Part shown: piece by piece, positions 2,894-21,902 of the stretch
Numbering within the stretch: position 1 is the stretch's first letter
Layout of the letters: each line of letters opens with the position of its first letter
NCBI GenBank assembly: GCA_027340875.1
Contig: DAIENX010000099.1
Span: forward strand, 1 to 22,694
Reading direction: 5' to 3'
DNA: 22,694 bases
Source of the DNA: Elusimicrobiota bacterium
Lineage (GTDB): Bacteria; Elusimicrobiota; Elusimicrobia; Elusimicrobiales; UBA9959
Notes under the pieces: generated by a model
Told to the model about the DNA's origin: nothing
Seen by the model: the letters and a program-made list of their open reading frames with translations, nothing else
Database searches by the model: none
Made by a program: the position numbers and the translations under genes

Positions 2894-2930
2894 AAGCCGA
2901 CAATCCCTTGTCGGCTTCGCCTGCTATGCT
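2894..2930 (+). promoter_or_regulatory. Palindromic WYL/PafBC-like promoter element upstream of KilA-N gene
   Basis: Perfect IR AAGCCGACAA-tccc-TTGTCGGCTT (2894-2917). TGTCGG 2909-2914, 10-bp spacer, -10 TATGCT 2925-2930. Confidence 0.75.
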
Positions 2931-2953
2931 ATTTGTGTCGACATGGGGGAATT

Positions 2954-3883
2954 ATGAGCAAGAAAAGCATTATCGTCCAAGGGCGGGAGGTTCTGTTCTT
3001 CACGATCAAGGACGAGGATTATATATCCCTTACGGACATAGCGCGCTATAAAAATCCGGATGAGCCCAAAGACCTTATCAAGAACTGGCTGCGCTCAAAA
3101 AGCACCATAGAATTCTTGGGGCTATGGGAAAAACTGCATAACCCCGGGTTTAAAGGGGTCGAATTCGACCCCTTTATGTATCAGGCAGGGAGCAATTCTT
3201 TTGTGCTTTCCCCGTCAAAATGGATCGAGACCACCGGCGCTATCGGGCTCGTTTCAAGGTCCGGCCGGATGGGGGGCACGTTCGCCCATCATGACATAGC
3301 ATTCGAATTCGCGGCCTGGGTCAGTCCTGAGTTCAAACTGTATCTTCTAAAAGAATTCCAGCGCTTAAAAAAGGAAGAGGCTACGCAATTAAAATCGGGC
3401 TGGAACCTTCAGCGAGAGTTGGCCAAGGTTAATTACCGCATCCATACGGACGCCATAAAAGACAGCCTGATCCCGCCGGAGCTCACTAAAACGCAGATGG
3501 ACGCGGTTTACGCCAACGAAGCGGACATTCTTAACGTGGCCCTGTTCGGGAAGACCGCGGCAGAGTGGCGGCAGCAGAATCCTGGCTTGCGCGGCAATAT
3601 CCGCGACTACGCCACTATTGAACAACTCGTGGTACTGTCTAATCTGGAGAGCGTCAATGCGGTGTTCATCCGCCAGGGAATGCCGCAAGCCCAGAGGATG
3701 CGGCAGTTGAACAAGACTGCCATAAGCCAGATGCGTTCTTTAGCTGATGCGGGAGGCATTAAAAGACTGGATTCCAAGGAGCCGGCCGCGAAGTATACTG
3801 TGCTGACTGGAGATAAAAAAGGAGGGAAATTGGTCAGCAGATTGTTGACCAATTACCGAAGAAGGGATGAACACATTACTTGA
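2954..3883 (+). CDS. KilA-N domain DNA-binding protein (309 aa)
   Basis: DYISLTDIA..IKNWLR..TIEFLGLWE..SGRMGGTFAHHDIAFEFAAWVSPEFKLYL, with the C-terminal WNLQRELAKVNYRIHTDAIK region usual in bacterial KilA-N proteins. SD GGGGGA before ATG 2954. Confidence 0.9.
   Translation: MSKKSIIVQGREVLFFTIKDEDYISLTDIARYKNPDEPKDLIKNWLRSKSTIEFLGLWEKLHNPGFKGVEFDPFMYQAGSNSFVLSPSKWIETTGAIGLVSRSGRMGGTFAHHDIAFEFAAWVSPEFKLYLLKEFQRLKKEEATQLKSGWNLQRELAKVNYRIHTDAIKDSLIPPELTKTQMDAVYANEADILNVALFGKTAAEWRQQNPGLRGNIRDYATIEQLVVLSNLESVNAVFIRQGMPQAQRMRQLNKTAISQMRSLADAGGIKRLDSKEPAAKYTVLTGDKKGGKLVSRLLTNYRRRDEHIT
3151..3176. repeat. 26-bp perfect intragenic palindrome
   Basis: TAAAGGGGTCGAA/TTCGACCCCTTTA, encoding KGVEFDPF. 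Confidence 0.9.
3828..3854. repeat. Imperfect inverted repeat near the KilA-N 3' end
   Basis: AATTGGTCAGCA-gat-TGTTGACCAATT; 11/12 pairs with one G-T. Confidence 0.75.
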
Positions 3884-3947
3884 GTATTTATATCGCGACG
3901 CCTCTAATTACAAGCAGCGTGGACACGTGGTGATGGAGGGTGCCTAG
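3867..3947 (+). pseudogene. Probable N-terminal remnant of a YLYRDASNYK-motif hypothetical protein
   Basis: 26-codon ORF MNTLLEYLYRDASNYKQRGHVVMEGA* after a purine-rich SD-like GAAGAAGGG. The motif is recalled from longer uncharacterised proteins; the ORF overlaps the KilA-N end. Confidence 0.5.
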
Positions 3948-4089
3948 GCGGAAATTTGGGTTAAGATGTCCGTGCCTGGCCGGCGACGGCGCCATGATCG
4001 TGCCGGGCGACAAGGTCACCGTCGGCGGGCCTGGGACCGGCGGCAGACGGCCGGCTCCTCACAGGATACCGGAAAACAGCGCGCATATT

Positions 4090-4098
4090 TGATACTAT
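4090..4098 (+). promoter_or_regulatory. Putative extended -10 promoter for the secreted-protein operon
   Basis: TG-a-TACTAT in the intergenic region, 65 bp upstream of ATG 4164. Confidence 0.4.
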
Positions 4099-4163
4099 AG
4101 CGGGGGGAGACTGTTTAAACTATAAACGCACGCGCGTTTTATGATGTGGGAGGGGTTGGGAAA

Positions 4164-5765
4164 ATGACCAAACTTGCATGCGCGGTGTTCATCGCCGCGC
4201 TGGTTTGCGCCGGGGCGCAGGCCGCGGATAAGGGCGTTGCCGGTCCTTTATTCGGAGTGAATACCGTCCTCTCCGGAGAGAACAGGTTCTCCGTCTACAA
4301 TAACCGCGTTTCCGGTCCGGGCTCCGGCAATTCGTTCCTGGCCCGCGGCACCCGTTACCAGGATAACCTTTCGCTGAACCTGGATTCGGAGCGTGAAGCC
4401 GCCGAGGGGTGGTCGCTGGCGCTAGACCTGCTGGTAACGGACGACGACAGCGTGGATCACAAAAAAGTGGTAGCGCGGCGCGTCTCTTACGACCGGCGGA
4501 GCCCCGGCCGGCAGGTGACCGCCGGGGACCTGTACGGCAACTTCACGCAGTACAGTCTCAATCAGAGCGTGAAAGGCCTGCGTTGGGTGGAGCGGCAAGG
4601 CGCCGCCGTGGAGGTCTCCGCGGTGGCCGGCCTGGTAAAGAACCGCTGGGATGAACTTTTTGAAAAAGGCAGTTATGAGGTGCTTAACCGCGAAGTGGAG
4701 GGCGTGCGCGCGCGCTGGACCGGGCCCATGGCCTCCGAGATAGGCGCGCAGGCAGTGCTTACTCAGGACCAGCGGGTGCCCGGCGCCACTGCGGACGCCT
4801 ATAGGCAGAGGCTTTTCGGCTTCAACTGGGCGCTGCCTTCCAACTCCGATCTTTCGGTGAGCGGGGAAAGCGCCTGGTCGGGAGTGGGGATAGACAAACA
4901 CAACGCCGCTGATTCCTCCAGGAGCGACAGCGCGCACCGGGTGTCGGTGCGGCTGAAGGCCGGCCCCTGGAGTTCCTCCAATGAATACGAGAACGTGGGC
5001 CCCGGCTTTACCACCACGGTGGGCGCGGCCGCGCCCGACCTGCGCAGGTGGCTGACCAGGAACCGGGTGCGGGTGGCCCCCGGGATGGACGCGCTGGTCA
5101 ACCTGTCCGGCTACCGCAACAACCTCGACGGCGCCCAGCCGGACACGGTGCGCGCGCTGTCGCCGGAAGCCGGGCTGCGCTGGAGCGCCGCTTTCAACCG
5201 GCCTACGCTGGACCTGGAGGCCAGGGTGCGGCAGCGCAGGGCCGTTCACAGTTCGGCGACAGCCGAGCAGCGGGAACTGAGCGGGATACTGTCGCTCTCC
5301 GACCGCTGGGGGCCGCTCAGCGGAACGTTCGATTATGAGCACCGCAACGAGGAGCGGGTGGGCCAGCAGAAGAACAGCCGCGATCTTTTCGGCTTCGGCC
5401 TTTCCGGCTTCTACCGCCTGCGGGACGTCATACTGCGGCCTTCGGTGAAATGGAACCTCGAGCGCGACCGCGACCGGACGGCGTCTGTCTACAATGCGAC
5501 CGCGCAGTCGTACCTGGGCCTGTCCGCCGAGAATCTGGCGCCGGGGGTGTCCGCCTCTTTCAGCTACCGCCGCTCCTCGGCGCTGCAGGCCGGGGCCGAC
5601 GATGTGATGCGCGGCGTCCTGGACCTGCGCTGCAATTACAAGGTGCCCTGGCGGGAAGGCGACAGCCTGGAAGCCGGCTACAGGAGCGGCGTGAACGATT
5701 TTTCCACGAGTTCCAAGAATTACCGTGAGCGGGTCTGGGAGGCAGCGTATGTCGCGAAACTTTAG
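4164..5765 (+). CDS. Exported protein, probable outer-membrane beta-barrel (533 aa)
   Basis: Signal peptide MTKLACAVFIAALVCAGAQA. Many amphipathic alternating beta strands with aromatic ends (LSLNLD, LSVSGESAWS, LSGTFDYEHR, VSASFSYRR); C-terminal strand WEAAYVAKL. Confidence 0.7.
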   Translation: MTKLACAVFIAALVCAGAQAADKGVAGPLFGVNTVLSGENRFSVYNNRVSGPGSGNSFLARGTRYQDNLSLNLDSEREAAEGWSLALDLLVTDDDSVDHKKVVARRVSYDRRSPGRQVTAGDLYGNFTQYSLNQSVKGLRWVERQGAAVEVSAVAGLVKNRWDELFEKGSYEVLNREVEGVRARWTGPMASEIGAQAVLTQDQRVPGATADAYRQRLFGFNWALPSNSDLSVSGESAWSGVGIDKHNAADSSRSDSAHRVSVRLKAGPWSSSNEYENVGPGFTTTVGAAAPDLRRWLTRNRVRVAPGMDALVNLSGYRNNLDGAQPDTVRALSPEAGLRWSAAFNRPTLDLEARVRQRRAVHSSATAEQRELSGILSLSDRWGPLSGTFDYEHRNEERVGQQKNSRDLFGFGLSGFYRLRDVILRPSVKWNLERDRDRTASVYNATAQSYLGLSAENLAPGVSASFSYRRSSALQAGADDVMRGVLDLRCNYKVPWREGDSLEAGYRSGVNDFSTSSKNYRERVWEAAYVAKL

Positions 5766-7011
5766 AGCGGTGAACCTCGTCTGCGCCCTGGCGCTGGCGG
5801 CGGCGCTGTTCCCGGCCGGCGCCGGCGCGGGCTGGTGGATATTCGGCAAAGCGAGCGGCCGGCCGGAGATAACGAAAACCTTCGTGGGCGGCGTGGACCT
5901 TTCCGGAACGGACGGGAAGGTAGCGCTGTTCAGGGAAAACCTGCAGGACGGCAAGCTGCCGTTAAAGGCCTTTTTCAGGACGGCGAAGAACACCCCCGTG
6001 GCGCAGGCCCGCGTAAGTATCGATGGCGGAGAGACCTGGCTGGAGAAGGTGGAGCTAGACAGGGACAGCCTGCTGCTCTCTTTCGCGCCGCAGGAAGGGA
6101 AGACCTACGCGCTCAAAATGATCATCACGGACACAAAAGGCCAGGAGAACGATCCCGCCGACGTCCCTAAAGTGACGTTCACCTACAATGCCGCCTCGGC
6201 CGAAAGCCTGGCCGCGCGCGACCTGGCGGCGCTGGCGAAATTCTACGCCGCAAGGGACCTCCGCGGTTTCACGTCGATGCTGGCCGCGGACTACCGCGGG
6301 GACCGCAGCAGCCTGGAGGATGCCGTGGCCGGGGATTTCAGGGCTTACCGCCAGATCGACCTGGAAGTCATCCCGCAGCGCGCGCTCGTCGCCGGCCCGG
6401 AGGCCAGGGTCCGGTTCCGCTACAATATGTCGGCGGTGAAGGCCGCCGACGGCTCGGTGCAGAAAGTGTCGGGCGAGACCGAGTGCACGCTGAAGTCCGA
6501 GGGAGGGGTCTTTAAACTGTTGTGGCTGCAGTCCCCGCCTATCTTCGGCTCCACGGCGCGTTCCGACGAAAACCCCTCGCCCGGAGGCGTTCCGGTGGAC
6601 AGCGGCGGCGCGGACACCCTTTCCGCCGCGCTTTTGCCGGGCGTGATCACCGGCAACGCCAGCGTCGCCTACGCCACCGCCGGCTTCAAGTTCAGCACGC
6701 AGACCAACCCCGCCCCGGCGCCGGGCGCGGTGGACGTGGGCGTGGGCCCGGGGGCCGGCTACCTGCTGGCCTACAGCGCCGGCTCGTACGGCTATATCGC
6801 GTACCTGGGGAACGTGGACCTTTCGACCATCGGCACCATATCCGGCATGGGCACGGCCACCGAGGCCCCGGCCTCGAACGGGGGCGCCTACGCCATCCTC
6901 ACCGAGGCCGGAAAATACGCCGTCATACAGGTGACCTCCATAAACGCCGGCGCCGCCACGGTCTCGTTCAAGTACATGTACCAGCCCGACGGCTCGCCCA
7001 GGTTCAGGTGA
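5749..7011 (+). CDS. Exported multidomain protein (420 aa): beta-sandwich, NTF2-like and C-terminal beta domain
   Basis: Signal peptide ending FPAGAGA. VSIDGGETW Ig-like segment, NTF2-like LAKFYAARDLRGFTSMLAADY..VRFRY..TLKSEGGVFKL, C-terminal YAILTEAGKYAVIQVT..FKYMYQPDGS. Overlaps upstream gene by 17 bp. Confidence 0.7.
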   Translation: MSRNFRAVNLVCALALAAALFPAGAGAGWWIFGKASGRPEITKTFVGGVDLSGTDGKVALFRENLQDGKLPLKAFFRTAKNTPVAQARVSIDGGETWLEKVELDRDSLLLSFAPQEGKTYALKMIITDTKGQENDPADVPKVTFTYNAASAESLAARDLAALAKFYAARDLRGFTSMLAADYRGDRSSLEDAVAGDFRAYRQIDLEVIPQRALVAGPEARVRFRYNMSAVKAADGSVQKVSGETECTLKSEGGVFKLLWLQSPPIFGSTARSDENPSPGGVPVDSGGADTLSAALLPGVITGNASVAYATAGFKFSTQTNPAPAPGAVDVGVGPGAGYLLAYSAGSYGYIAYLGNVDLSTIGTISGMGTATEAPASNGGAYAILTEAGKYAVIQVTSINAGAATVSFKYMYQPDGSPRFR

Positions 7012-7018
7012 CGGCGCC

Positions 7019-10000
7019 ATGAGGACCTTCTTTTCGCTGGCGGTGAGCTTAAGCCTGGCCGCGCCCGTCTTCGCCGGTCCCGAAGGGGGCAAGTCGGAAG
7101 AAGCGGCCAGGAACGAGCTGCTGGAATTCTATAAAGCGGCCCAGGACAATGTGCTGGCGGCGCAGAAGACCGCCGAAGACGGCATGAAGAAAGCCGAGGA
7201 ATGGACGCAGGCCTACAGCGACTACGCGCCGCAATTCGACGGCATGGTGCAGAAACTCGGCGACGCAGTGCTGCGCAACCGCCAGACCGCGCAGGACAAA
7301 CTGGAGGTGATAAATTTCCTGCAGCGGCTGGAAGGTTCCAAGGTGTACGCGGTCTCGCAGTACCGGCTGAACGAAAAGATAAACCGGATGGACAACTACG
7401 CCGAGATCATCGGCGAACTGCAGCGGGTGAAGCAGGAACTCGACGGCCGCTACTCCAAAGCCGTCGCCTGGGCCGGGCGCATGGCCGAGGAGCATAAGGG
7501 GTTGGGGGAGCTGGCGCAGGCCATAGCCGGCAAGGCCGGCCTGCTGCGCCATATGAAGATCTCGATAGAGATAATGGAAAAGTACAAGCCGGTCCCCGAC
7601 GACAAGTTCGACAGCCTGCGGCAGATAGAGACCATGCTAGGCGACGTCACCAAGATAGTGCCGCGGCCCATGAGCGACGTGCTGGACGGTTACGCCAAGA
7701 CGCTGGCCGGGATAACGTCCGCCCTGCGTGCGCTGGATACGCAGATACAGAACAATGCGCGGCAGGGCTTCATGGAGATCACCGGCCCCGAGCAGCGGGC
7801 CTGGCAGGAGCAGTACCCCGGGGAATTCGCCGGCGTCCAGAAGATGAAGGAATTCCCCGAAGTGGAGCCGCAGGGGCTGTGGGTGGGCACGGCGCTGGAC
7901 GGGGAGATCTATGCTTTCGAGGACGGCCGTTTCAGCCGCCTGAGCTGCTCCGCAGGCGCGCTGAGGACCGTCTACGGACATTACACGGAGCTGCTTGAAA
8001 AAGTGCGGGCGCTGGCCGGGGCGCAGGTGAAGATACCTCTCGGCCGCCTGCGGCGCGCCTGCGAAGACCCGGACTTCGTCGCGCGGCTGCAGAACGCCTC
8101 CGGGCTTTACGACAAGGCGCGCGACCCGCAGAACTATCCGGGATCTTTCGCTTCTTTCACCAGCATCCTGTCGGACGCCTTCGGCGCGACCGTGGCCGAC
8201 CGGACGGCGCAGGCGATAAGAAGCGGACCGGCTCATCCCGCGGTGACTCCGCCCGGTCCCGCCGCCCCCGCCGGCGGCGACCCGGCCGCCTACCTGCTCT
8301 GGGCCGACGCCCTGTGGCGGCGCTATGACCAGCTTGCCAGCGAGGCCGACCTAGGCGACAAGTTCGCGGTCATCAAGGCCGACGCGAAAACGGCGTCGCA
8401 GGCCTTCGCCAAGAACTATAATTCCACGCTGGCCTCGAAAGACCCGGCCTACGGCAAAGCGAACAAGCTCCTGTGGCTGCTTTGCTCTCCGGAGCGATGG
8501 GAGACCGGCAACCCCAAAGCCGAGATGAGCGCGCAGAACGCGGCCGCGCTGTTGGGCGTGGACGCGAAAGCGACGCTGCGTCTCGCCGGCCTGGCCAAGG
8601 GGAATTACCGCGGCCAGCTGGAAAATTACGGAAAGGCGCTGGCGGATTATCTGGAGATAAAAAGACAGATCGGGGAAATGACGCTCCAGGGCGCCGCCGG
8701 CATCCCTTATAACCGCTACGACGGGACTTTCTACGTGGCGCCGCGCTCCTTCCCCAAAGTGCCGGAACCCGGCGAGAACCCCCTTGTGGAAAAACTGGCG
8801 CTGCTGCGCGATTTCCTGCAGGGGAAACAGGGCGGCTCTAACTGGACGGAAACGGTTATGGATTCCGGAGGCGCGCGCGGCTACGCGGCCGCTTACGACG
8901 ACAGGACAATGGACATGCTGTTGAGCGGCGAAGAGGGCAAGGCCAAAAAAGCCGCCGAGGCGCTGAAGTGGGAGTCGCCGGCGCCGGGGCTGAAGGCCGC
9001 GCTCCTGCGGGTACGGGCCGCGGCGGACGGCGTGCTGAAATGGGAGACCGCCCAGCGGTTTACGCTCAGCTCCATTTCGCCGCAGGGGCTCATGGACCGC
9101 ATAGACAAAGATATCGCCTGCCTGGACGAACGGGATTCCGCCATACAGAACGGCATCAGGGAGTATAAAGGGCAATTCCCGGCGAGGGTCTCCGGCCTGG
9201 CCGCCGAATGCCGCGCGGCGCTGGCCACGATAACTTCCGCGTCGCTCGCCCTGTGCGCCGACACGCTTAAAGAACTGCGGAAGCGGGACGAGGCCGAAAA
9301 ACGGTTCTATTCCGTATGGGAGGCGCTGAACCCTTCCTTTAAGGCCATGCTGCGCGGGGAGAACTGGGTGTACAGGGTGCCGGCCGGCATACCGATGGGC
9401 AAGTCCTATGAGGCCGTGCTGGAAATGAGCAGCTTCGCGCGGCAGACGGCGCAGCAGACCGTCAGGGCCAGGCTGGCTTACGCCTCGGCGCTGGAAAAGG
9501 ACCGCCGCGCCGCGCGGGAGCTGCCGCTGTTCTTCCTGCCGCAGGCCTCGTCCAATGACCGTGGCATGCTGGACGCTTACAATGCCCTCGTTTCCGACGC
9601 GGAATACCGGTATGGCGATGAAATAGCCGGGGCCGAGCCCTATGAATTCGAAAAGACGGCGCTGCAGGCGGCCCTGCGCGCGCTGCCGCAACTGCCCGGC
9701 CGGCCGGGCGGCGCCCTGCCGGGAACCGGCGGGGGCGCGGGACCAGGCGGTACTCCGTCCGCCGACGAAGAAATTAAGCGGTTCTATGACAGGTTCGCGA
9801 AGGCCTACGAGTCGGCCGACCTGGCCGGCGTCCTTGGCGCCGTTTCGGACCGGTGGCGTTCCAATACCGGCCAGACCATTGCCGGCCTCGACGGCAGGCT
9901 CGGCAGCGTCTTCTCGACTTATAAGAACCTGCGCTGTACGATCTCGCGCCTGACCACGGCCCCGGCGGCCGGCGGGAAGCAGGCCTGGGAGGTCTCTTAT

Positions 10001-10141
10001 CATATCGTGATCGAGGGCGAGCTGGTCCAGCGGCGCGGCATCGTGAACCGCGAGGAGTACGATGTGCGCGAGACCGTGGAGCTGGAGAACGGCAGGTTGC
10101 GGATAACCCGGACGGAAGGCGAGGGGCTGCTGGGCGAGTAG
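7019..10141 (+). CDS. Large exported helical protein with C-terminal NTF2-like domain (1040 aa)
   Basis: Signal peptide MRTFFSLAVSLSLAAPVFA, long helical/coiled-coil regions, Pro/Gly linkers, terminal EIKRFYDRFAKAYESADLAGVLGAVS..VSYHIVIEG..ELENGRLRITR. Confidence 0.75.
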   Translation: MRTFFSLAVSLSLAAPVFAGPEGGKSEEAARNELLEFYKAAQDNVLAAQKTAEDGMKKAEEWTQAYSDYAPQFDGMVQKLGDAVLRNRQTAQDKLEVINFLQRLEGSKVYAVSQYRLNEKINRMDNYAEIIGELQRVKQELDGRYSKAVAWAGRMAEEHKGLGELAQAIAGKAGLLRHMKISIEIMEKYKPVPDDKFDSLRQIETMLGDVTKIVPRPMSDVLDGYAKTLAGITSALRALDTQIQNNARQGFMEITGPEQRAWQEQYPGEFAGVQKMKEFPEVEPQGLWVGTALDGEIYAFEDGRFSRLSCSAGALRTVYGHYTELLEKVRALAGAQVKIPLGRLRRACEDPDFVARLQNASGLYDKARDPQNYPGSFASFTSILSDAFGATVADRTAQAIRSGPAHPAVTPPGPAAPAGGDPAAYLLWADALWRRYDQLASEADLGDKFAVIKADAKTASQAFAKNYNSTLASKDPAYGKANKLLWLLCSPERWETGNPKAEMSAQNAAALLGVDAKATLRLAGLAKGNYRGQLENYGKALADYLEIKRQIGEMTLQGAAGIPYNRYDGTFYVAPRSFPKVPEPGENPLVEKLALLRDFLQGKQGGSNWTETVMDSGGARGYAAAYDDRTMDMLLSGEEGKAKKAAEALKWESPAPGLKAALLRVRAAADGVLKWETAQRFTLSSISPQGLMDRIDKDIACLDERDSAIQNGIREYKGQFPARVSGLAAECRAALATITSASLALCADTLKELRKRDEAEKRFYSVWEALNPSFKAMLRGENWVYRVPAGIPMGKSYEAVLEMSSFARQTAQQTVRARLAYASALEKDRRAARELPLFFLPQASSNDRGMLDAYNALVSDAEYRYGDEIAGAEPYEFEKTALQAALRALPQLPGRPGGALPGTGGGAGPGGTPSADEEIKRFYDRFAKAYESADLAGVLGAVSDRWRSNTGQTIAGLDGRLGSVFSTYKNLRCTISRLTTAPAAGGKQAWEVSYHIVIEGELVQRRGIVNREEYDVRETVELENGRLRITRTEGEGLLGE

Positions 10142-10173
10142 AGAGCGCGGGGGAATGTGGGGCAGGGAAAATT

Positions 10174-10187
10174 GGGGTCAGGTCTTG
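10174..10187 (+). repeat. GGGGTCAGGTCTTG motif, copy 2
   Basis: Intergenic, 51 bp upstream of direct repeat copy 2; matches 2424-2437. Confidence 0.5.
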
Positions 10188-10256
10188 GCCGTTTTGAAGA
10201 GCATAGCTCCTGATACGGCACGCGCATAGCGCAGAATCTTGATATTCAGGGGTAAA

Positions 10257-10637
10257 ATGACAGAAACAGAAAAACTCATCCGGGAATTTTGGCGGCTGAT
10301 GGGGACTAACGACTTCGGGGCGGCGGCGGGGCTGCTGGCGCCGGACTTTACGTTGGACTGGCCTCAGTCGGGCGAGCGCATACGCGGCCCGAAGAATTTT
10401 GCCGCTGTTAACTCCGAGTATCCGGCGCATGGGCCGTGGAAGTTCAGGATCAACTCACTGGTGGCCGGCCCGGACAGCGCGGCTACCGACGTGGACGTTA
10501 CGGACGGCACCGTGCGCGCGCGGGCGATCACGTTCTTCGCCGTAGAGAATGGCAAGATCGCCAGGATCACCGAATTCTGGCCGGACCCCTTCCCTGCCGC
10601 CGAGAACCGGAAGCACCTGGCAGAGCGGATAAAATAG
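10257..10637 (+). CDS. SnoaL-like / NTF2-family protein, copy 2 (126 aa)
   Basis: Differs from copy 1 at only 6 residues, all within the first 25. Confidence 0.85.
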   Translation: MTETEKLIREFWRLMGTNDFGAAAGLLAPDFTLDWPQSGERIRGPKNFAAVNSEYPAHGPWKFRINSLVAGPDSAATDVDVTDGTVRARAITFFAVENGKIARITEFWPDPFPAAENRKHLAERIK

Positions 10638-10689
10638 CCGGCCTTTAACCTGAGCCAGGTATTTAAATAATCCCCGATATCACTTCCTC

Positions 10690-10727
10690 CAACCCGTCAC
10701 CTCCTTGTCGGGTTGACCTGCTATGCT
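10690..10727 (+). promoter_or_regulatory. Palindromic WYL/PafBC-like promoter element upstream of ORF6N gene
   Basis: CAACCCGTCA-cctcct-TGTCGGGTTG (9/10 IR). TGTCGG 10706-10711, 10-bp spacer, TATGCT 10722-10727. Confidence 0.75.
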
Positions 10728-10745
10728 ATTTATAGCGGTTATGTC

Positions 10746-10768
10746 TGAGGTCACAAATTGTGACCTCA
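10746..10768. promoter_or_regulatory. Putative operator palindrome between promoter and RBS of ORF6N gene
   Basis: Perfect IR TGAGGTCACAA-a-TTGTGACCTCA; the same core recurs inside the gene at 10984-11010. Confidence 0.65.
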
Positions 10769-10783
10769 AACGCTGGGGGGAAT

Positions 10784-11137
10784 ATGTCAAAAGAGATCGT
10801 CCCGCATGAGTTGATCGAGGCTAAAATACTTTTAATACGCGGGCACAGGGTTATGCGGGACCGTGATCTTGCTCCTCTATACGGCGTTACCACAAAAGCG
10901 CTCAATCAGGCCGTTAAACGCAGAAGGGAAAAGTTCCCCGCAGATTTCATGTTCCAACTGACAAAACGGGAGGCGCAGGAACTTTCAAGGTCACAATTTG
11001 TGACCTTGAAGCGTGGCCAGAATATCAAGTTCTTGCCCTACGCGTTCACGGAATACGGCGCTATACCGGCGGCGAACATCTATCCTACTGATCTATTTTA
11101 TGTGCTTCCCGGTGTATTTCAAGCAGGTAAGGGTTAA
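10784..11137 (+). CDS. ORF6N domain DNA-binding protein, probably C-terminally truncated (117 aa)
   Basis: IRGHRVMRDRDLAPLYGVTTKALNQAVKR..FPADFMFQLT..RSQFVT..PYAFTEYGA is the ORF6N signature. Similarity ends after AANI. SD GGGGGGA. Confidence 0.85.
   Translation: MSKEIVPHELIEAKILLIRGHRVMRDRDLAPLYGVTTKALNQAVKRRREKFPADFMFQLTKREAQELSRSQFVTLKRGQNIKFLPYAFTEYGAIPAANIYPTDLFYVLPGVFQAGKG
10984..11010. repeat. Intragenic palindrome in ORF6N gene
   Basis: Perfect IR TTCAAGGTCACAA-t-TTGTGACCTTGAA, encoding SRSQFVTLK. Confidence 0.9.
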
Positions 11138-12549
11138 TTAGGCCTCGGCGGCCTTCTCGGGCCGCGGCGGTCGCCGGGACGGCCGGGGCCGCCGGGACCT
11201 CGGCGCGGAGGACCGAATTTGCGGGGGCCCGGAGGCCTGCCGAAGGGCTTGGGGCCGCGGGGCTGCCAGGGGCGGTCGCCGCCGGGGCGGGGATCGTTGC
11301 CGCGAGGCGGGCCGAAGCGGCGGGGCGGGCGGCTGTCACCGCCGGGACGGGGTTCGAAGCGCCTTGGGGGGCGGCTGTCGCCGTCACGAGGGGGACCGAA
11401 ATGTTTACGGAGAGGGCGGCCTTCGCCGAAGCGGTCATCGCGGCGCGGAGGGCCGAAACGCCTGGGAGGGCGTGAATCTCCGCCCGGGCGCGGCTCGAAG
11501 CGCCTTGGGGGGCGGCTGTCGCCGCCTTGCGGGGGGCCGAAATGCTTCCGAGGGCGGTCGTCGCCGTAATGGCCTTCGCGCCTGGGCGGGCCGTAATGCC
11601 TGCCGGGCCTGTCGTCCCGGTGGTGCTCGTCGCGCCGCGGGGGACCGAAATGCTTGCGCGGAGGACGCCCCTCGCCGAATTGGTCATCGCGCCGCGGGGG
11701 ACCGAAGCGCCTGGGGGGGCGCTCGTCACGGCGGTTGTCATCGTTGAATTTGCGGGGGCCGGGCCTGCCGTATGAGCGCTGGTCCCGCGGCTGCCACTGG
11801 CGGTCGCCGCCGGGGCGGCCCTCATCGCGGCGGGGGGGGCCGAAGCGCTGGGGAGGTCTTTGCTCCCCGCGGTTCTCGTCCCCGAAATTCTGCGGGCCCT
11901 TCCTGCCGTAGGCGCGCTGGGCGCGCGGCTGCCAGCGGCGGTCGTCTTCGGGGCCGTTCTCTTCTGGGCGCGGGGGGGCGTAATGCCTGGGGGGCCTTTC
12001 GCCGCGGGGCTTAAAATCGCGCCTGGGCGGGCCGAAACGCTTGCCGGGCCTGTCGCCGCGGGGTTTGTCCTGCCGCGGGCGCGGGGGTATGCCTACGGGA
12101 CGGGTGGGCGGGGGAGGGATGATCTCCTGCTGCGCCGGGGGCTCGGCGGCTTTAGGGGCCGGCTGAGGCTCCGCCTGGGGCGCCGGCTCCGGCGCGGGAG
12201 CGGGCGCGGCGGCTTCTATAGGCTGCTCGGGTGCCGGGCTGGGTTCGGGCTGGGCTACGGACGGCTCCGGCGCGGCGGCGGCTTCAACCGGCTGTTCCGG
12301 GGCCGCGGCGGCGGGCTGCGCCTGTATCTCCTGCTGAGGCTCCGCGGGTACGGCGGCCTCGCCGGGGGGCGGCACGGCGTGGATGAACTTCACTTTGGCG
12401 CTGTTCTTGGCGTTGGAGGCGCCTATGCGGCAATGAGTGCAGCGGCGCAGGCAGTCGCGGTAGGTATTGGCCTGGGGAACTTCCTTGGCTTTGACCTGCG
12501 GCATCATGCGGCCGCAGCCGGGGCAGCGAATTTGGGGCAGGATGATCAT
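11134..12549 (-). CDS. Zn-ribbon protein with long Pro/Ala/Glu and Arg/Gly/Pro/Asp low-complexity tail (471 aa)
   Basis: Start reassigned to ATG 12549 because the upstream part of the 858-aa ORF is antisense to a real gene. N-terminal CPGC..CTHC, then PAEP linker and repeated FGPPR units. Confidence 0.75.
   Translation of the reverse strand: MIILPQIRCPGCGRMMPQVKAKEVPQANTYRDCLRRCTHCRIGASNAKNSAKVKFIHAVPPPGEAAVPAEPQQEIQAQPAAAAPEQPVEAAAAPEPSVAQPEPSPAPEQPIEAAAPAPAPEPAPQAEPQPAPKAAEPPAQQEIIPPPPTRPVGIPPRPRQDKPRGDRPGKRFGPPRRDFKPRGERPPRHYAPPRPEENGPEDDRRWQPRAQRAYGRKGPQNFGDENRGEQRPPQRFGPPRRDEGRPGGDRQWQPRDQRSYGRPGPRKFNDDNRRDERPPRRFGPPRRDDQFGEGRPPRKHFGPPRRDEHHRDDRPGRHYGPPRREGHYGDDRPRKHFGPPQGGDSRPPRRFEPRPGGDSRPPRRFGPPRRDDRFGEGRPLRKHFGPPRDGDSRPPRRFEPRPGGDSRPPRRFGPPRGNDPRPGGDRPWQPRGPKPFGRPPGPRKFGPPRRGPGGPGRPGDRRGPRRPPRPN
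11165..12035 (-). repeat. Degenerate intragenic tandem repeats encoding (R/H/K)FGPPR and GDSRPPRRF units
   Basis: About ten FGPP/YGPP units; GDSRPPRRFEPRPGGDSRPPRRFGPPR occurs twice, and DRxWQPR three times. Boundaries approximate. Confidence 0.75.
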
Positions 12550-12556
12550 TAGGGAT

Positions 12557-13695: not shown

Positions 13696-13708
13696 TAGCG
13701 AGGCGACC

Positions 13709-14287: not shown

Positions 14288-14291
14288 TCTT

Positions 14292-14300
14292 TGTTATAAT
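14292..14300 (+). promoter_or_regulatory. Extended -10 promoter, probably leaderless pxpB
   Basis: TG-t-TATAAT ends 6 nt before GTG 14307. Confidence 0.6.
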
Positions 14301-14306
14301 TAAGGC

Positions 14307-14954
14307 GTGACCAAGACTACACCGGAAACCTATTTCCTCGGCGACGCCTGCCTGTGCTGGGCGCTGGGGGAGAAGATAGACCGCCTCACCTCGCTGAAAG
14401 TGCTCTACGCCTGGCGCAAGCTCTCCGGCGACCCGAAGCTCAAGGCCCTGGGCGTGCACGACCTGGTGCCGTCCTACACGGCGCTGGCCGCCCACGCGGA
14501 CCCGCTGTGCGACTGGGACGCCGTGCGCCGCGTGGTGGACGCCTGCCTGGCCGCGATGCCCTCCGAAGAGGCCAAGCTGAAGGAGCGCTCCGGCCGGCAC
14601 GTGCTGCCGGTGTCCTACAAGGGCGAGGACCTGCAGCGCGTGGCCGACCACGCGAAGCTCACGGTGGAAGAGGTGATACGCCGCCACACCGCGCCCGAGT
14701 ACCTGGTGGCCATGATAGGCTTCCGTCCCCATTTCCCTTATCTCCTCGGCCTGGACCGCACGCTGGTCACGCCGCGGCTGGATTCGCCCCGCGTGGCGAT
14801 ACCCGCCGGCGCCGTGGCCATAGGCGGCGAGCAGACCGGCGTGTACCCGGAGAAGTCCCCGGGCGGCTGGAACATACTGGGCATGACCGAGCCGGAACTC
14901 CTCTACGACATAGAGCCCGGCGACACCGTGATCTTCAAGAGGGCCGACCGATGA
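14307..14954 (+). CDS. pxpB: 5-oxoprolinase subunit B (KipI / allophanate hydrolase subunit 1 family)
   Basis: LGD..DLVPSYT..PVSY..DL..IGFRPHFPYL..PR..PAGAVAIGGEQTGVYP..SPGGWNILG. Confidence 0.9.
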   Translation: MTKTTPETYFLGDACLCWALGEKIDRLTSLKVLYAWRKLSGDPKLKALGVHDLVPSYTALAAHADPLCDWDAVRRVVDACLAAMPSEEAKLKERSGRHVLPVSYKGEDLQRVADHAKLTVEEVIRRHTAPEYLVAMIGFRPHFPYLLGLDRTLVTPRLDSPRVAIPAGAVAIGGEQTGVYPEKSPGGWNILGMTEPELLYDIEPGDTVIFKRADR

Positions 14955-16528: not shown

Positions 16529-16535
16529 CCCGCCC

Positions 16536-17591: not shown

Positions 17592-17612
17592 CCCGGGGGA
17601 TCCGCAGGGGGG

Positions 17613-17641
17613 AACGGCGGCGCCTGCCGCCGTTTTTATTT
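17613..17641 (+). terminator. Intrinsic terminator
   Basis: AACGGCGGC-gcct-GCCGCCGTT followed by TTTATTT, downstream of the CDF-Nudix gene. Confidence 0.8.
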
Positions 17642-17688
17642 GGTCTCCGCGGCCCGTCCGGAGCGATTATGTATAATCATTTTTAATC

Positions 17689-19431
17689 ATGCAAAAAATT
17701 TCCAAGGCACTTAAGACCATAGGCCGCCTGCACCTGGGGCTGTACCTCCTGTTCGTCATGATGGCCGGCTTCGGCGGCTTCACGGCCTCCTTCCTGGAGA
17801 AGTACTCGCTCATAGACGTGGATCTGCTCAAGACGGAGTGGGCGCGGGTCTCGGACGCCAAGGCGCACGGGGAAAATATAGAGATCACGCGGAAGGATAT
17901 GATGCGCATCTTCCGCCCTATAAAGATGGAGAAGCGCATAGAGCATCGTTACAAGAACGGAAAATGGGAGGAAGTGGAGGCCTACAAGAACACCGACGGA
18001 GTGAGCTTCATATATTTCCTCATCATCCTCGCCTGGCTCTGGCCGCTTTACCGGTACCGTTTCGGAAAGAACAAGCCGCCGCTCCCCGGTATAGAGCGCC
18101 GCATCATAAACCTGCCCCTCCTTCTTTTCGCGCTGAGCTGGGCCGTTTCTATCCAGCGCTATTTCATGAGCGTCGCGTCCTACGCGCACGCCTATGGTCC
18201 GGTGCCGGACAAGATGAAGCTGGTGTTCGCCGTCTCTTCGCTGCTGATGGGCGCGTTCGTCAGCTACCTCAACCTGGAGATAACGGGCGCCTACATCCGC
18301 CGCTACATAGCCAGGCCGTTCTTCAGCGAGACCGACCCGTACGGGCCTAAGCGCGGCTTCGCTATAAACCTCTCGCTGCGCTACGCGCTGATGCTGTTCT
18401 CGCTGGCGGCGGTGCCGCTGGCGCTCTGCGTCTATATACCCGCCTACGCCAATTTCGACATTTTCATGACCGTGGTAGCCAAGGCCAAATTGCAGGGCAA
18501 AGCGATGATCTTCGACTACGACGTCATCCGAGCGCTCGCCCCGCTATTGGTCATGGCGGTACTCGTGGCGATGATGCTGGTCTTCCAGGCCGTCTCGCTG
18601 ATGTTCTATCGCTGGAACGTCCAGGTCCCGCTGAGCGCGCTGGTGCGCCGCATGAAGGCCGTGGCGGCGGGGGACTTCGACTGCAAGTCCTCCGTGTACT
18701 ACGCCGACGAACTGGGCCAGCTGAAAGGGCATTTCAACATGATGCTCGACGGCCTGGTGGAGCGCGACCACATCAAGGACACCTTCGGCCGGTACGTCTC
18801 GATGGAGATAGCCGAGAAGATCATGAAGAGCGGCAAGGTGAACCTGGCCGGCGAGGAGATACAGGCCACCGTGCTGTTCTCCGACATCCGCGGTTTCACG
18901 CCGCTCTCCGAGAAGATGCCTGCGCCCGAGCTGATAAAGTTCCTCAACGACTATTTTTCGCATATCACGGCGCCTATAGCCGAGAACCGCGGCGTCATCA
19001 ACAAGTTCATCGGCGACGCGGTGATGGCCATCTTCTCGCCGGTGTTCGGCGTGGAGGACCACAAGGAAGCCGCGCTGCGCGCGGCGCTGGGCATGCGCGA
19101 GGCCCTGAAGAAGTTCAACGCGCAGGGCAAGCACCCGGAGGTCAACTTCGGCGTGGGCATACACTCGGGCGGGCTGGTGGCCGGCAACGTGGGCACCGAG
19201 GCGCGCCTGGAGTACACCGTGCTGGGCGATACCGTGAACGTGGCCTCGCGCATAGAGACGCAGACCAAGGCCGCCGGCACCCAGATACTGATAAGCCAGG
19301 CCGTGATGGACGGCGTGGACAAGGCGCATTTCGCCGGAGTGAGCTTCGTCGAGTGCGACCCGGTGGTGATGAAGGGCAAATCGCACGCGATGGTGCTGTA
19401 CAAGGCGGAGCCGGAAGCCGCCCGCGCCTGA
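17689..19431 (+). CDS. Membrane-bound class III adenylate cyclase with HAMP domain
   Basis: Several TM helices, HAMP (PLSAL..GDF..DELGQL..FNMM), catalytic VLFSDIRGFT, INKFIGDAVMA, EYTVLGDTVNVASR; K/T specificity residues suggest ATP. TATAAT at 17672-17677. Confidence 0.9.
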   Translation: MQKISKALKTIGRLHLGLYLLFVMMAGFGGFTASFLEKYSLIDVDLLKTEWARVSDAKAHGENIEITRKDMMRIFRPIKMEKRIEHRYKNGKWEEVEAYKNTDGVSFIYFLIILAWLWPLYRYRFGKNKPPLPGIERRIINLPLLLFALSWAVSIQRYFMSVASYAHAYGPVPDKMKLVFAVSSLLMGAFVSYLNLEITGAYIRRYIARPFFSETDPYGPKRGFAINLSLRYALMLFSLAAVPLALCVYIPAYANFDIFMTVVAKAKLQGKAMIFDYDVIRALAPLLVMAVLVAMMLVFQAVSLMFYRWNVQVPLSALVRRMKAVAAGDFDCKSSVYYADELGQLKGHFNMMLDGLVERDHIKDTFGRYVSMEIAEKIMKSGKVNLAGEEIQATVLFSDIRGFTPLSEKMPAPELIKFLNDYFSHITAPIAENRGVINKFIGDAVMAIFSPVFGVEDHKEAALRAALGMREALKKFNAQGKHPEVNFGVGIHSGGLVAGNVGTEARLEYTVLGDTVNVASRIETQTKAAGTQILISQAVMDGVDKAHFAGVSFVECDPVVMKGKSHAMVLYKAEPEAARA

Positions 19432-19474
19432 CATGAAGCTTTCCAATACTCTCGCTTATTCCACAGGAGGAAGG

Positions 19475-20527
19475 ATGAACTCCGGACCGGAACTGACGGG
19501 CAAGGCCATACTGGAGATGGTGCGGGCCTTCCAGCCCGCCTGCGTGCTGATAGCGGGCGCGGACCTGGACGTATTCACGCTGCTGCACAACAGGCCCATG
19601 ACCGCCGCGGCCCTGGCCGGGCGCATCAAGGGCCAGCCGCGCGCGACGGAGGTGATGCTGGACGCGCTGGCCGCGCTCGGCATGCTGAGGAAAAGCCCAA
19701 AGGGCGTCTATTCGCTGCCGCGCGGGCTGGAGAAGGTGCTCACCGAGGACGCCGCCCACGGCATACTCGGCATGCTGCGCCACCAGGGCACCTGCCTGCG
19801 CCGCTGGGGGGACCTGGCCGCCGTGGTGAAGACCGGCCGGCCCGCCGAGAAGCGCCACAGCGTGCGCGGGCCCGAAGGGGACCTGGAATCCTTCATCCGC
19901 GCGATGCACGAGGTGTCCACGCCGCTGGCCGCGCCGCTGGTGACAAGCCTCGGGAAGCTCAGGTTCACCCGCCTGCTGGACCTGGGCGGGGCCTCCGGCA
20001 CCTGGACCATACCTTTCCTGAAGGCCGCCCCCGGCGCCAGGGCGACCATCTTCGACCTGCCGCAGGTGATACCGATGGCCCGGCGCCGCCTGCGGAAGCT
20101 GGGGCTGGGCGCGCGCATAGCCTTCGCCGCGGGCGACTACAACCGCGACGCCATGCCCGGCGGCCACGACCTGGCCTGGGTTAGCGCTATAGTGCACCAG
20201 AACTCGCGTCCGCAGAACCGCGCGATGTTCCGGAAGGTCTACAAAGCGCTGGTGTCCGGCGGCCGGATATTGATCCGCGACGTGGTGGTGGACGCCACCC
20301 GCACGCGGCCGGTGCACGGCGCGCTGTTCGCCGTGAACATGCTGGTGGGCACGCAGGGCGGCTCCACGTTCACTTTCGACGAGCTGAAAGAGGACCTGCA
20401 GAGCGCGGGCTTCACCGCCGTGAAGTACCTGCGCCGCGGCCAGGCGATGGACACCGTGGTGGCGGCCTCCAAGCCGCGGGGGAGGCGAATGACGCCGGAG
20501 GCGCCGGGAATCCCGCGCGCTAAGTGA
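19475..20527 (+). CDS. SAM-dependent O-methyltransferase (Methyltransf_2 with dimerisation domain)
   Basis: LLDLGGASG, TIFDLP, AGDY, GGRILIRD motifs plus N-terminal winged-helix region. SD AGGAGG before ATG 19475. Confidence 0.85.
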   Translation: MNSGPELTGKAILEMVRAFQPACVLIAGADLDVFTLLHNRPMTAAALAGRIKGQPRATEVMLDALAALGMLRKSPKGVYSLPRGLEKVLTEDAAHGILGMLRHQGTCLRRWGDLAAVVKTGRPAEKRHSVRGPEGDLESFIRAMHEVSTPLAAPLVTSLGKLRFTRLLDLGGASGTWTIPFLKAAPGARATIFDLPQVIPMARRRLRKLGLGARIAFAAGDYNRDAMPGGHDLAWVSAIVHQNSRPQNRAMFRKVYKALVSGGRILIRDVVVDATRTRPVHGALFAVNMLVGTQGGSTFTFDELKEDLQSAGFTAVKYLRRGQAMDTVVAASKPRGRRMTPEAPGIPRAK

Positions 20528-20874
20528 TGTCCACGTCCAAGGAGACCATAGAATTCCTGCGCGACGCGCTGTCGCTTGTGCCGGAGGTAACCTTCCGGCC
20601 GATGATGGGGGAATACTGCGTCTACAGCGCCGGCCGCGTGTTCGCCCTGGTCTGTGACGACACCCTTTTCCTCAAGACCACTCCAGCCACGCTCGGCCTG
20701 TTCTCCGACAAGAGGACCCGCGCCTATCCCGGCAGCAAAAATACCTGCCAGGCCAACGCCGAATGGCTGGAGGACCGCGAGAAGCTGGCCAAGGTGGTGG
20801 GCCGCACCCTGGCCTCGCTGCCGCCGCAGAAACCCAAGGCAGGCAAGGGAAAAAAGGACAGGAGCGGACTATGA
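20527..20874 (+). CDS. TfoX/Sxy N-terminal domain protein
   Basis: VTFRPMMGEYCVY..VFALVCDDTLFLK..YPG signature; coupled to upstream stop (TGATG). Alternative GTG at 20524. Confidence 0.85.
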   Translation: MSTSKETIEFLRDALSLVPEVTFRPMMGEYCVYSAGRVFALVCDDTLFLKTTPATLGLFSDKRTRAYPGSKNTCQANAEWLEDREKLAKVVGRTLASLPPQKPKAGKGKKDRSGL

Positions 20875-20902
20875 GGGACAAAGCCGACTCAGGGAGAGCC
20901 AC

Positions 20903-21400
20903 ATGAGCGCGACCAAGGTCTGCCGCGACGTGCGGAGCTTCCTGCGCGGGCTGGCCCGGGACCTGCCCGGCCTCTTTCCGCGCGCGCCGCGCCGGGTGTA
21001 CCGCGTGGTCAGGCGCAGCCGCCGGACCCTGCGCCCCACGCCGTCCCAGCGGGAAAGCGCCCGGGAGCTCATAACCGCCAGAACGGCGCACTGGGCCGCG
21101 CAACTAGGCCTGGAATACAAGCGCATAGCCATCAAGAGCCAGCGCACGTTGTGGGCGAGCTGCTCGCGGCGGGGGAACCTGAACTTCAACTGGCGGCTGG
21201 CTTCCGCCCCGCCGGAGGTGCTGGACTATATCGTCATACACGAACTCTGCCACCTGCGGGAGATGAACCATTCAAGGCGCTTCTGGGCGCACGTGGCCGC
21301 GGCCTGCCCCGGCTATAAGGAGATAAGGCGCTGGCTGAGGAAGAACACGGCAGCTCTGCTCTACGGGGAGCCCGCCGGGGAGAACGCATGTCCGACATGA
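20903..21400 (+). CDS. YgjP/DUF45 (M48-like) zinc-motif protein
   Basis: QRTLWASCS..LNFNWRL..LDYIVIHELCHL.EMNHS..FW (HExxH). ATG 20903 after GGGAG; start uncertain. Confidence 0.8.
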   Translation: MSATKVCRDVRSFLRGLARDLPGLFPRAPRRVYRVVRRSRRTLRPTPSQRESARELITARTAHWAAQLGLEYKRIAIKSQRTLWASCSRRGNLNFNWRLASAPPEVLDYIVIHELCHLREMNHSRRFWAHVAAACPGYKEIRRWLRKNTAALLYGEPAGENACPT

Positions 21401-21735
21401 AGAAGTTGACACGCGCCGTGCTGAAGTTCCGCGACGAGCGCGACTGGAAGCAGTTCCACAACCCGAAGGACGTGTCCATCTCGCTGGCGCTGGAGGCGGC
21501 GGAGCTGCTGGAGCATTTCCAGTGGAAGACCCCGGCGCAGGTGAAGGCCCACTTGAAAGCGGAGAAGGAGAACGTCTCCGACGAGCTGGCCGACGTGCTG
21601 TACTGGGTGCTGGTGCTGGCCCACGACCTGGGCATAGACCTGGGCCTGGCGGTGGAGAGGAAGCTCGTCAAGAACGCGAAGAAGTACCCGGTGGCCAAGT
21701 CGCGCGGGCGCAGCGCCAAGTACGACAGGCTTTGA
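21388..21735 (+). CDS. MazG-like nucleotide pyrophosphohydrolase (dCTP pyrophosphatase-like)
   Basis: FRDERDWKQFHNPKD..EAAELLEHFQW..DELADV..K..KN..KYP. Confidence 0.9.
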   Translation: MSDMKKLTRAVLKFRDERDWKQFHNPKDVSISLALEAAELLEHFQWKTPAQVKAHLKAEKENVSDELADVLYWVLVLAHDLGIDLGLAVERKLVKNAKKYPVAKSRGRSAKYDRL

Positions 21736-21831
21736 AGCGGCCGCACAGCTCCCGGAAAAGCGATCCTGGAACGGATGCGGCTGACATGCACAGCTGCTGC
21801 TCCGCCTAAACGATCCATATTTCTTGCACCG

Positions 21832-21870
21832 CCAACCCGACAGCCCCTTGTCGGGTTGGGCTGCTATGCT
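21832..21870 (+). promoter_or_regulatory. Palindromic WYL/PafBC-like promoter element upstream of ssb
   Basis: Perfect IR CCAACCCGACA-gcccct-TGTCGGGTTGG. TGTCGG 21849-21854, 10-bp spacer, TATGCT 21865-21870. Confidence 0.8.
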
Positions 21871-21902
21871 ATTGCCGTAGCGACCTTAGGCTAGGGGGGA
21901 AT

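Follow-up and report, generated by a model that had tools for sequence, protein, structure and literature searches.

A palindromic promoter recurs in the window

The window analyzed here is a 22,694-nucleotide contig (C68) from an Elusimicrobiota bacterium of the order Elusimicrobiales, part of a 2.8-Mb assembly with 63.6% GC that is 92% complete and that we label G000. Three of its genes, which profile searches assign to KilA-N (PF04383), ORF6N (PF10543) and the single-stranded DNA-binding protein SSB (PF00436), are each preceded by a copy of the same palindromic promoter. This promoter, its counterparts elsewhere in the genome and the WYL-domain regulator that probably activates them are the subject of this report. 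An earlier note on this DNA had attributed the promoter to a LexA-independent DNA-damage regulon under a PafBC-type WYL activator.

The copies had been placed at 2894, 10690 and 21832, and they are present there. The pattern CCGWCA-N6-TGTCGG-N10-TANNNT matches the window at 2897, 10694 and 21837, always on the plus strand, compared with no match in 100 dinucleotide shuffles, and a repeat search of the window unites the copies in one family with 82-87% identity across 45 nt. Each does lie 5′ of a different DNA-binding gene, with 23 (KilA-N), 56 (ORF6N) or 32 nt (ssb) from TATGCT to the ATG. The fixed distance of 10 bp from TGTCGG to TATGCT holds in the window, and the palindrome sits at the -35 position, so that a canonical -35 would coincide with the final left-arm base plus the spacer. 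No WYL family was detected in the 19 window proteins scanned, and the WYL matches of the genome are on other contigs, in keeping with the earlier statement that the window has no WYL gene.

Promoter copies 1 and 2 belong to a duplication of 493 aligned bases with 92.1% identity that terminates at the promoter; alignment of its two copies bears out that the ssb copy lies outside it (Table 1). Because the duplication runs to the promoter end, copies 1 and 2 are not independent of each other, while the ssb copy is. Within the 37-nt element, copies 1 and 2 show eight differences, two of which form a dyad-preserving pair.

The motif across the genome

Genome-wide, the family has the consensus CGACA-N6-TGTCG-N11-TAnnnT, with 25 sites in G000. 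A scan matrix trained on 24 exact matches, all among these 25, scored the sites at 29-59 bits, followed by the reverse strand of the ssb site at 20.5 and then by 14, and column-shuffled matrices gave no hit above 20 bits in 10 shuffles. As the matrix was trained on its own sites, this gap is circular, and a spacer scan and the reversed pattern are better controls. Scanning CGACA-Nn-TGWCG gave a peak of 62 counts at n=6 and at most 30 at any other n. With a dyad-only matrix the same 24 sites rank first, most lower matches being these sites read on the other strand; the dyad thus seldom occurs without the -10. Our motif survey covered Elusimicrobiota genomes, 201 of the phylum and 41 of the genus. 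The N5 pattern, with the spacing of the WYL activators DriD and DdaA, had no hit in G000 and was at background level in the 201 genomes (24 hits versus 26 for the control), and N5 was rejected as the spacing of the motif.

The sites have the features of a promoter lacking its -35 box. TAnnnT follows TGTCG by 11 nt in 24/25 sites, the 25th having the variant CAGGAT, and a TG extension precedes the -10 in 21/25. No TTGACA occurs at the -35 of the dyad promoters, while the organism's other promoters use TTGACW-N17-TAnnnT. An ATG stands 6-7 nt after the -10 in 5/25 sites compared with 3.1% for any TAnnnT (p=0.0008), as would be expected if a genuine -10 gave rise to leaderless mRNAs. The 6-bp spacer is GC-rich, and four of the five core dyad pairs are complementary in all 25 sites.

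Such complementarity might instead mark a terminator or RNA hairpin acting on transcripts from upstream: at each of four positions flanking the core, the outer arms do pair in 14-21 of the 25 sites, and several sites fold at -15 to -21 kcal/mol. Yet sites that fold weakly (-6 to -9) are no rarer than strong folders, the third pair is broken in 6/25 sites with the consensus kept, and the element is locked to the downstream -10 and start codons, several sites facing away from their upstream neighbor. No site has a T4 run within 14 nt past the stem, and with a U tract after the stem in 0/25 the terminator, an alternative named beforehand, was rejected; we give the hairpin reading next to no credence.

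Genes under the promoter

The first genes 3′ of the sites, named by NCBIfam and Pfam, include recA, an AddA/RecB-like helicase-nuclease gene, an AddB-like nuclease gene, ssb, radC and comM/YifB, alongside a TIGR03916-TIGR03915 repair pair (radical-SAM), a Gp49-HTH pair, a type I methylase, DUF6794 and several unknown genes. Six ORF6N genes, one ORF6N fragment and KilA-N complete this picture, and every ORF6N gene (6/6) and KilA-N gene (1/1) found in G000 has the site. Where a TPR gene carries the site, a Sir2-like gene follows; behind comM come an unknown gene, dprA and a probable topA. In G122 and G054, where the majority of the listed sites were inspected, comM, ssb, radC and ORF6N are again targets, which also include Bro-N, YhcG, XhoI, Schlafen and four IS200-like transposase genes. 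A motif search did not find rpoB or rpoC in the G000 assembly.

Enrichment at recA, uvr genes and ssb had been put forward as a check of the damage regulon, and the genome scan answers it in part: recA and ssb carry the site, as do the addA/addB-like genes, radC and comM, and uvrA and uvrB do not. KilA-N and ORF6N, earlier suggested to be recruited phage-type DNA-binding genes, carry the site and match candidate anti-phage families (PDC-S22 and PDC-S05), which fits the precedent of DdaA. We also observed, at G000:C69:31400-37300, a tandem array of four ORF6N genes, an ORF6N fragment and the Gp49-HTH pair, in which every member has a promoter copy to itself.

recA and its LexA-like neighbor

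A LexA-like S24 gene (PF01726 and PF00717; TIGR00498 at 79.5 bits, cut-off 110.95) is divergent from recA. The WYL-type site is present at recA in all 13 genus loci examined, and in all 13 recA has a second promoter of the canonical sigma-70 type, which stands back to back with that of the LexA-like gene and lies farther from recA than the WYL-type site. The LexA-like protein may repress this distal recA promoter. At G000:C47:1180-1680, as at all 13 loci, the back-to-back promoters of recA and the leaderless LexA-like gene flank a conserved 14-bp stretch, a candidate operator of the LexA-like protein, that was not found elsewhere in the G000 genome. LexA independence as originally proposed is upheld for the dyad promoter and perhaps not for recA, with its canonical promoter beside the LexA-like gene.

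The proximity of the LexA-like gene, divergent from recA in at least 13 genus genomes, raises the alternative that the dyad is an operator of this S24 protein, or else an element of an alternative sigma factor. The promoter of the LexA-like gene itself, however, is a canonical TTGACW-N17-TAnnnT without the dyad in 11/13 loci. An S24 match is absent from the many-site genomes G211, G172 and G180 (95-100% complete), and G054, G209 and G236 have weak matches only (E 1e-6 to 4e-5, versus E <1e-15 for the LexA-like gene). Because these six motif-carrying genomes lack a LexA-level S24 match, the LexA-like protein was rejected as the reader of the dyad. A dyad is ill-suited to a monomeric sigma factor; the -10 is of sigma-70 type and the sites physically track WYL genes. 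This alternative is accordingly very improbable in either form.

A single candidate WYL regulator

The search for an HTH-WYL-WCX protein that the earlier note had called for was successful. G000 has two WYL matches, one a Pif1-like helicase fusion and the other a 316-aa protein with HTH_11, WYL and WCX domains (Table 1). Its orthologues are present in 37/41 genus genomes, including all 23 of high quality. Its predicted structure (pLDDT 74.7) has DriD (E 4e-14) and PafBC (E 6e-14) as best Foldseek matches. The recognition helix reads R40-x-x-Q43-R44, with R40 and R44 invariant and Q43 near-invariant, and these residues match R37, E40 and R41, through which DriD is described as reading CGAC (PMC10853764). 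The residues Y168, R178, Y192 and R207, which contact single-stranded DNA (ssDNA) in DriD, correspond to Y153, R162, Y177 and R194. A two-copy homodimer model scored 0.69 against 0.22 for the best control (20/30 true homodimers and 1/23 single chains reach the score mark), with contacts via WCX, run contact agreement of at least 64% and pLDDT of at least 76, although the score may reflect likeness to the solved DriD.

Sites and WYL genes also keep company on the chromosome. In the sister family f2, a WYL gene is found no more than 10 kb from 21/34 sites where fewer than 0.9 would be expected, a count that is not a formal test because the genomes are kin, and several sites are directly before the WYL start codon, some at 6-15 nt. 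Sites at WYL genes, another of the proposed checks, are found in many f2 genomes and are missing from the own promoter of the genus WYL gene. Among 36 parsed genus relatives (of 37, one unparsed), 27 have a site 3′ of the WYL gene, mostly 1.6-2 kb away and ahead of a conserved leaderless open reading frame of about 63 codons that has no Pfam family. In G000 this frame (G000:C79:3644-3832) lies under the motif about 1.8 kb past the WYL gene. A G210 island holds a second WYL gene surrounded by four sites, each of which has the rarer right arm TGTCGC.

The same protein could work in the opposite direction, as a repressor like CapW or BrxR whose dimer over -39 to -24 blocks polymerase until ssDNA releases it, the extended -10 promoters being active by themselves. 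The TGn before the -10 in 21/25 sites, the many defense-type targets, the match of CapW and BrxR to the WYL fold (E 2e-9 to 9e-7) and the frequent overlap of the f2 site with the WYL gene's own promoter would suit this model. Repressor operators, however, usually vary in position, and here the spacing is fixed at 11 nt, as in the activator promoters of DriD and PafBC; there is no -35 box beneath the dyad, in contrast to the housekeeping TTGACW-N17-TAnnnT; and DriD and PafBC outrank CapW and BrxR in Foldseek. Repression by the WYL protein is consequently unlikely.

A proposed family-wide regulon

Under the strict pattern, 38/201 phylum genomes have hits: 7/11 in the family of G000, 23/58 in f2, 6/63 in f12 and 1/2 in f19, with none in the remaining families. 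Reversed control patterns gave 12 hits in total across the 201 genomes, so single strict-pattern hits are weak. Within the genus, all 41 genomes have sites, 7-64 each and 849 in total versus 7 for the reversed pattern. At recA, the site is present in 7/11 family relatives, 0/9 f2 genomes and 0/6 scored elsewhere (30 loci surveyed, of which four, all from f12, were unparsed and left out). Given these two distributions, the global regulon is a family trait, and f2 genomes use this site in local WYL islands.

We also noticed look-alikes with a 5-bp spacer, CGTCA-N5-TGACG before a TATRCT -10, in f2 and f12 (G021, G042, G022, G079, G081, G085 and G097), which may be a separate WYL system with the spacing of DdaA. 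An uncontrolled search of viral contigs gave 19 matches to a 16-base pattern; most are off clear gene starts, and three resemble the Elusimicrobiales form of the motif.

A model for ssDNA-responsive activation

We put at roughly 77% the probability that the 25 sites are promoters activated by a single ssDNA-binding WYL regulator encoded elsewhere in the genome. The WYL-activated promoter class that had been proposed is sustained by the single HTH-WYL-WCX gene, the repair targets and the fixed -10 spacing, with the terminator and LexA readings failing. The assignment to PafBC is not sustained. A PafBC heterodimer was rejected for want of a second paralogue, the other WYL match being the helicase fusion, and the palindromic site and single HTH-WYL-WCX gene place the system with DriD instead; by analogy, the regulator most likely works like DriD, as a homodimer with the dyad over the -35, and not like heterodimeric PafBC.

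On the DriD model, ssDNA that arises when damage is processed or when DNA enters the cell would bind the WYL-WCX pocket and free the DNA-binding domains. In the bound homodimer, the half-sites at about -39 to -35 and -28 to -24 would each be contacted by Arg40 and Arg44 from one recognition helix; the dimer would recruit sigma-70 RNA polymerase, and transcription would start about 6-7 nt past the -10 hexamer. The output would comprise a core of recombination and ssDNA-handling genes (recA, addA/addB-like, ssb, radC, comM with dprA downstream, and TIGR03916/TIGR03915) and a variable, acquired set (ORF6N, KilA-N, Bro-N, YhcG, restriction-modification, Gp49-type toxin-antitoxin and IS200-like transposases), so that repair and defense genes would be switched on together by the ssDNA-sensing activator.

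Several observations weigh against this model. The sites at C2:6680 and C69:17487 have no clear co-oriented gene behind them, about 9 of the 25 first downstream genes belong to no family, and the extended -10 at 21/25 sites could fire without an activator. Three DriD pocket residues, R189, R204 and Y240, have no counterparts (4/7 are kept). The DriD spacer is described as 5 bp (CGAC-N7-GTCG) and AT-rich, in contrast to the GC-rich 6 bp here, and DriD is described as having a site at its own promoter in 68/69 homologues, in contrast to the genus regulator, whose promoter lacks the site in G000 and the four closest homologues searched (G122, G086, G172 and G054). G060, G128 and G174 have a WYL homologue and a recA without the site, and in G180 the WYL match is in two pieces in different frames (G180:C48:170440-171405), yet the recA site is kept. 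Finally, no site occurs within 3 kb, or to the contig end, of uvrA, uvrB, recN, dinB, mutL, mfd, ligA or gyrA, the last two named by motif only and the others by family search. With these eight core repair genes outside it, the regulon is not a full damage regulon; for this reason, and because of the second recA promoter, it is narrower and less LexA-free than proposed.

In a variant of the activator model the main cue would be foreign DNA, arriving by transformation, conjugation or phage, rather than damage to the chromosome, and the regulon would serve uptake, recombination and defense. The targets comM (with dprA downstream), radC, ssb and recA are a set typical of competence regulons; restriction-modification, Cas3 (G174), Sir2-like, ORF6N and KilA-N genes are also among the targets, and uvrA/B, recN, dinB, mutL and mfd are not. 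DdaA, moreover, is described as activated by DNA uptake in Acinetobacter (PMC13010146). Against a foreign-DNA cue, none of the 25 first downstream genes is a pilus or uptake gene, and the addA/addB-like genes and the TIGR03916 repair pair suit damage repair. We consider this variant possible though rather doubtful as the chief explanation; it overlaps with the general model of activation by ssDNA because both cues yield ssDNA.

If activation by ssDNA is correct, a phylum with almost no regulatory biology gains an ssDNA-response regulon that is open to test, with hundreds of sites and a named candidate for its regulator. The mode of DriD and DdaA would extend to a third dyad geometry, with a 6-bp spacer and the downstream half-site placed as in DriD and PafBC, which bears on the evolution of WYL activators between palindromic and single-site recognition. 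The model also predicts that solo ORF6N and KilA-N genes, known as candidate defense genes, are induced by damage or invasion.

Spacer dialects

The spacer comes in two dialects, with AC or CC at positions 3-4 (ACG-type and CCC-type). Among the 41 genus genomes the AC share is at most 0.25 in 28, at least 0.7 in 11 and between these values in two, and orthologous recA promoters change dialect along with their genome. Sigma-70 region 4.2 was rejected as the cause, being identical in 27/27 full sequences (one more is cut short). For 30 genomes, the dialect label requires three changes on the WYL tree (0/500 shuffles as low) versus seven on a GyrB+ValS+RpoD tree (39-40/500 as low); on single trees it requires nine for GyrB, four for ValS (22 genomes, 7/500) and six for rpoD DNA. 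Mantel correlations are 0.20 for WYL (p ~0.02) and -0.02 to 0.05 for the three housekeeping genes, reaching 0.44 for WYL residues 1-23, a region chosen after the data were seen. G201 and G000 are 95% identical in GyrB and 94% in ValS but 76% in WYL, and the sites of G201 are 13 AC and one CC. G238 is an exception to the link. No single WYL residue sets the dialect, the best separating 83%; residue 2 agreed at 28/28 loci scored at first and failed once the clade of G202, G209, G212 and G213 was added.

Judged by these gene trees, the dialects track WYL better than the three housekeeping genes, which is suggestive, modest support for the WYL protein as the reader. The GyrB, ValS and RpoD trees conflict with one another and the genomes are metagenome bins; because the housekeeping trees disagree, transfer of WYL alleles is not proven. 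GyrB sequences in the genus look mosaic (G209 with G217; G210 with G225/G231, nearly identical), which suggests frequent recombination or bin mixing.

A tentative and, in our judgment, rather unlikely extension is that the WYL protein reads the 6-bp spacer and that its alleles move between lineages of the genus, each swap being followed by re-tuning of the spacer at about 20 promoters across the genome (ACG-type versus CCC-type), so that the promoter would be a genus-wide socket that puts acquired defense and mobile genes (ORF6N, KilA-N, Bro-N, YhcG, restriction-modification and IS200-like transposases) under one ssDNA alarm. If true, nature would have run a replicated experiment on how regulator and site co-evolve, involving positions where DriD makes no base contact; should the dialects indeed go with regulator alleles, the genus offers ready material for studying it.

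Cargo genes and neighboring features

KilA-N and ORF6N are candidate defense genes by their PADLOC matches. BstA is described as a KilA-N-like protein that can be a phage defense with a cognate DNA element (PMC8585504). The ORF6N gene of the window is probably truncated, its product having 117 aa compared with 168-179 aa in five paralogues and diverging after about residue 100. Perfect palindromes with 13-15 bp arms occur about 197 nt into the coding sequence of 4/6 ORF6N paralogues, including genes on G000:C69 and C80, and of KilA-N, with different letters in each. Among metagenome relatives of ORF6N (81 loci, seven unparsed for the palindrome), arms of at least 10 bp occur in 43/74, with controls reaching at most 8, and the N6 promoter occurs at 5/81, so the palindrome is family-wide and the promoter local. 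The palindrome that separates promoter 2 from the ORF6N start closely resembles the one in the ORF6N coding sequence and is a candidate operator of the ORF6N protein. No relatives of KilA-N were confirmed in viral contigs.

A REP-like repeat with the core GGGGTCAGGTCTTG has 23 copies in the genome, two of them in the window and others around the ORF6N cassettes of C69. It lies less than 1 kb from 7/25 motif sites, and in relatives IS200-like transposase genes are 3′ of the promoter; the repeat may help to move promoter-gene cassettes. Just 5′ of duplication copy 1 (30-2438), a Schlafen group 3 helicase (PADLOC PDC-S41) and an Mrr-like nuclease form a small defense-type cluster with KilA-N. Three large exported proteins (539, 420 and 1040 aa) without a Pfam family are encoded between the duplication copies (4146-10141), and 11134-12550 on the minus strand holds a long Arg/Gly/Pro-rich low-complexity frame of 54- and 138-nt repeats.

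Table 1. Coordinates of features in the window and of the candidate regulator gene
Feature	Position	Strand	Details
Promoter copy 1	2894..2930	+	CGACA 2898-2902, 6-bp spacer, TGTCG 2909-2913, 11 bp, extended -10 TGcTATGCT ending 2930
Promoter copy 2	10691..10727	+	Left arm CGTCA
Promoter copy 3	21834..21870	+	Outside duplication
KilA-N gene	2954..3883	+	309 aa; PADLOC PDC-S22, E 5e-133
ORF6N gene	10784..11137	+	117 aa; PADLOC PDC-S05
ssb	21903..22349	+	148 aa; TIGR00621 above cut-off; same promoter on orthologues in G122 and G054
Duplication copy 1	2442..2934	+	SnoaL-like gene 2460-2840 and promoter copy 1; REP-like repeat at left edge (2424)
Duplication copy 2	10239..10731	+	SnoaL-like gene 10257-10637 and promoter copy 2; REP-like repeat at 10174
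Palindrome in KilA-N coding sequence	3151..3176	.	Perfect, 13+13 bp; about 197 nt after start
Palindrome in ORF6N coding sequence	10984..11010	.	Perfect, 13-1-13; codons for SRSQFVTLK
Palindrome 5′ of ORF6N	10746..10768	.	11-1-11; between promoter 2 and ORF6N start
HTH-WYL-WCX regulator gene	G000:C79:845-1795		HTH_11, WYL and WCX

Comparison with known WYL systems

A search of literature that holds few subscription journals turned up no account of a WYL regulon, or of an N6 dyad, from Elusimicrobiota; proteins of this kind might be present in the WYL tree of PMC12392091. The likeness to DriD and DdaA rests on similarity of the fold and C-domain together with features of the recognition helix and the site. 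Strict membership with DriD and DdaA fails on spacer length and autoregulation, and membership with PafBC on the heterodimer and site symmetry.

DriD of Caulobacter crescentus is the closest in architecture: it is a wHTH-WYL-WCX protein and the best structural match, with an R-x-x-E/Q-R recognition helix and recA among its targets (PMC10853764, PMC13004042), and its CGAC...GTCG dyad lies over a missing -35 at a fixed distance from the -10 and serves polymerase recruitment (PMC13004042). The regulon described here differs in being larger (7-64 sites) and rich in acquired genes; the proteins share about 18% sequence identity, and three ssDNA-pocket residues differ. DdaA of the Moraxellaceae resembles it in the half-sites CGWCA/TGWCG, including the A/T variant, in recA and ssb as targets, and in having restriction-modification and CRISPR genes in the same regulon (PMC12392091, PMC13010146). 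The DdaA spacer is N5 (PMC12392091), compared with N6 here; DdaA sites are reported about 50 bp 5′ of the start site, compared with a dyad center at about -31; and DdaA targets uvrA/C and gyrA/B, of which uvrA and gyrA carry no site here.

A homodimeric WYL activator, as proposed here, is also known in SiwR of Mycobacterium smegmatis (PMC10693628), which has its palindrome between the -35 and -10; it serves one local operon, in contrast to the genome-wide regulon here. PafBC, acting at the RecA-NDp/P1 promoter, shares TGTCG/TGTCR 11 nt before TAnnnT and a regulator that is not autoregulated (PMC6789036, PMC5656591); it is a heterodimer with a non-palindromic site, in contrast to the one HTH-WYL-WCX gene (in a genome 92% complete) and full dyad found here. 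The distance of 11 nt from TGTCG to the -10 is the same in the DriD promoter sequences (PMC13004042) and in the mycobacterial P1 consensus (PMC5656591). Mycobacterial recA is described as having two promoters, one WYL-type and one beside LexA control (PMC5656591), and the layout of recA in this genus recalls it.

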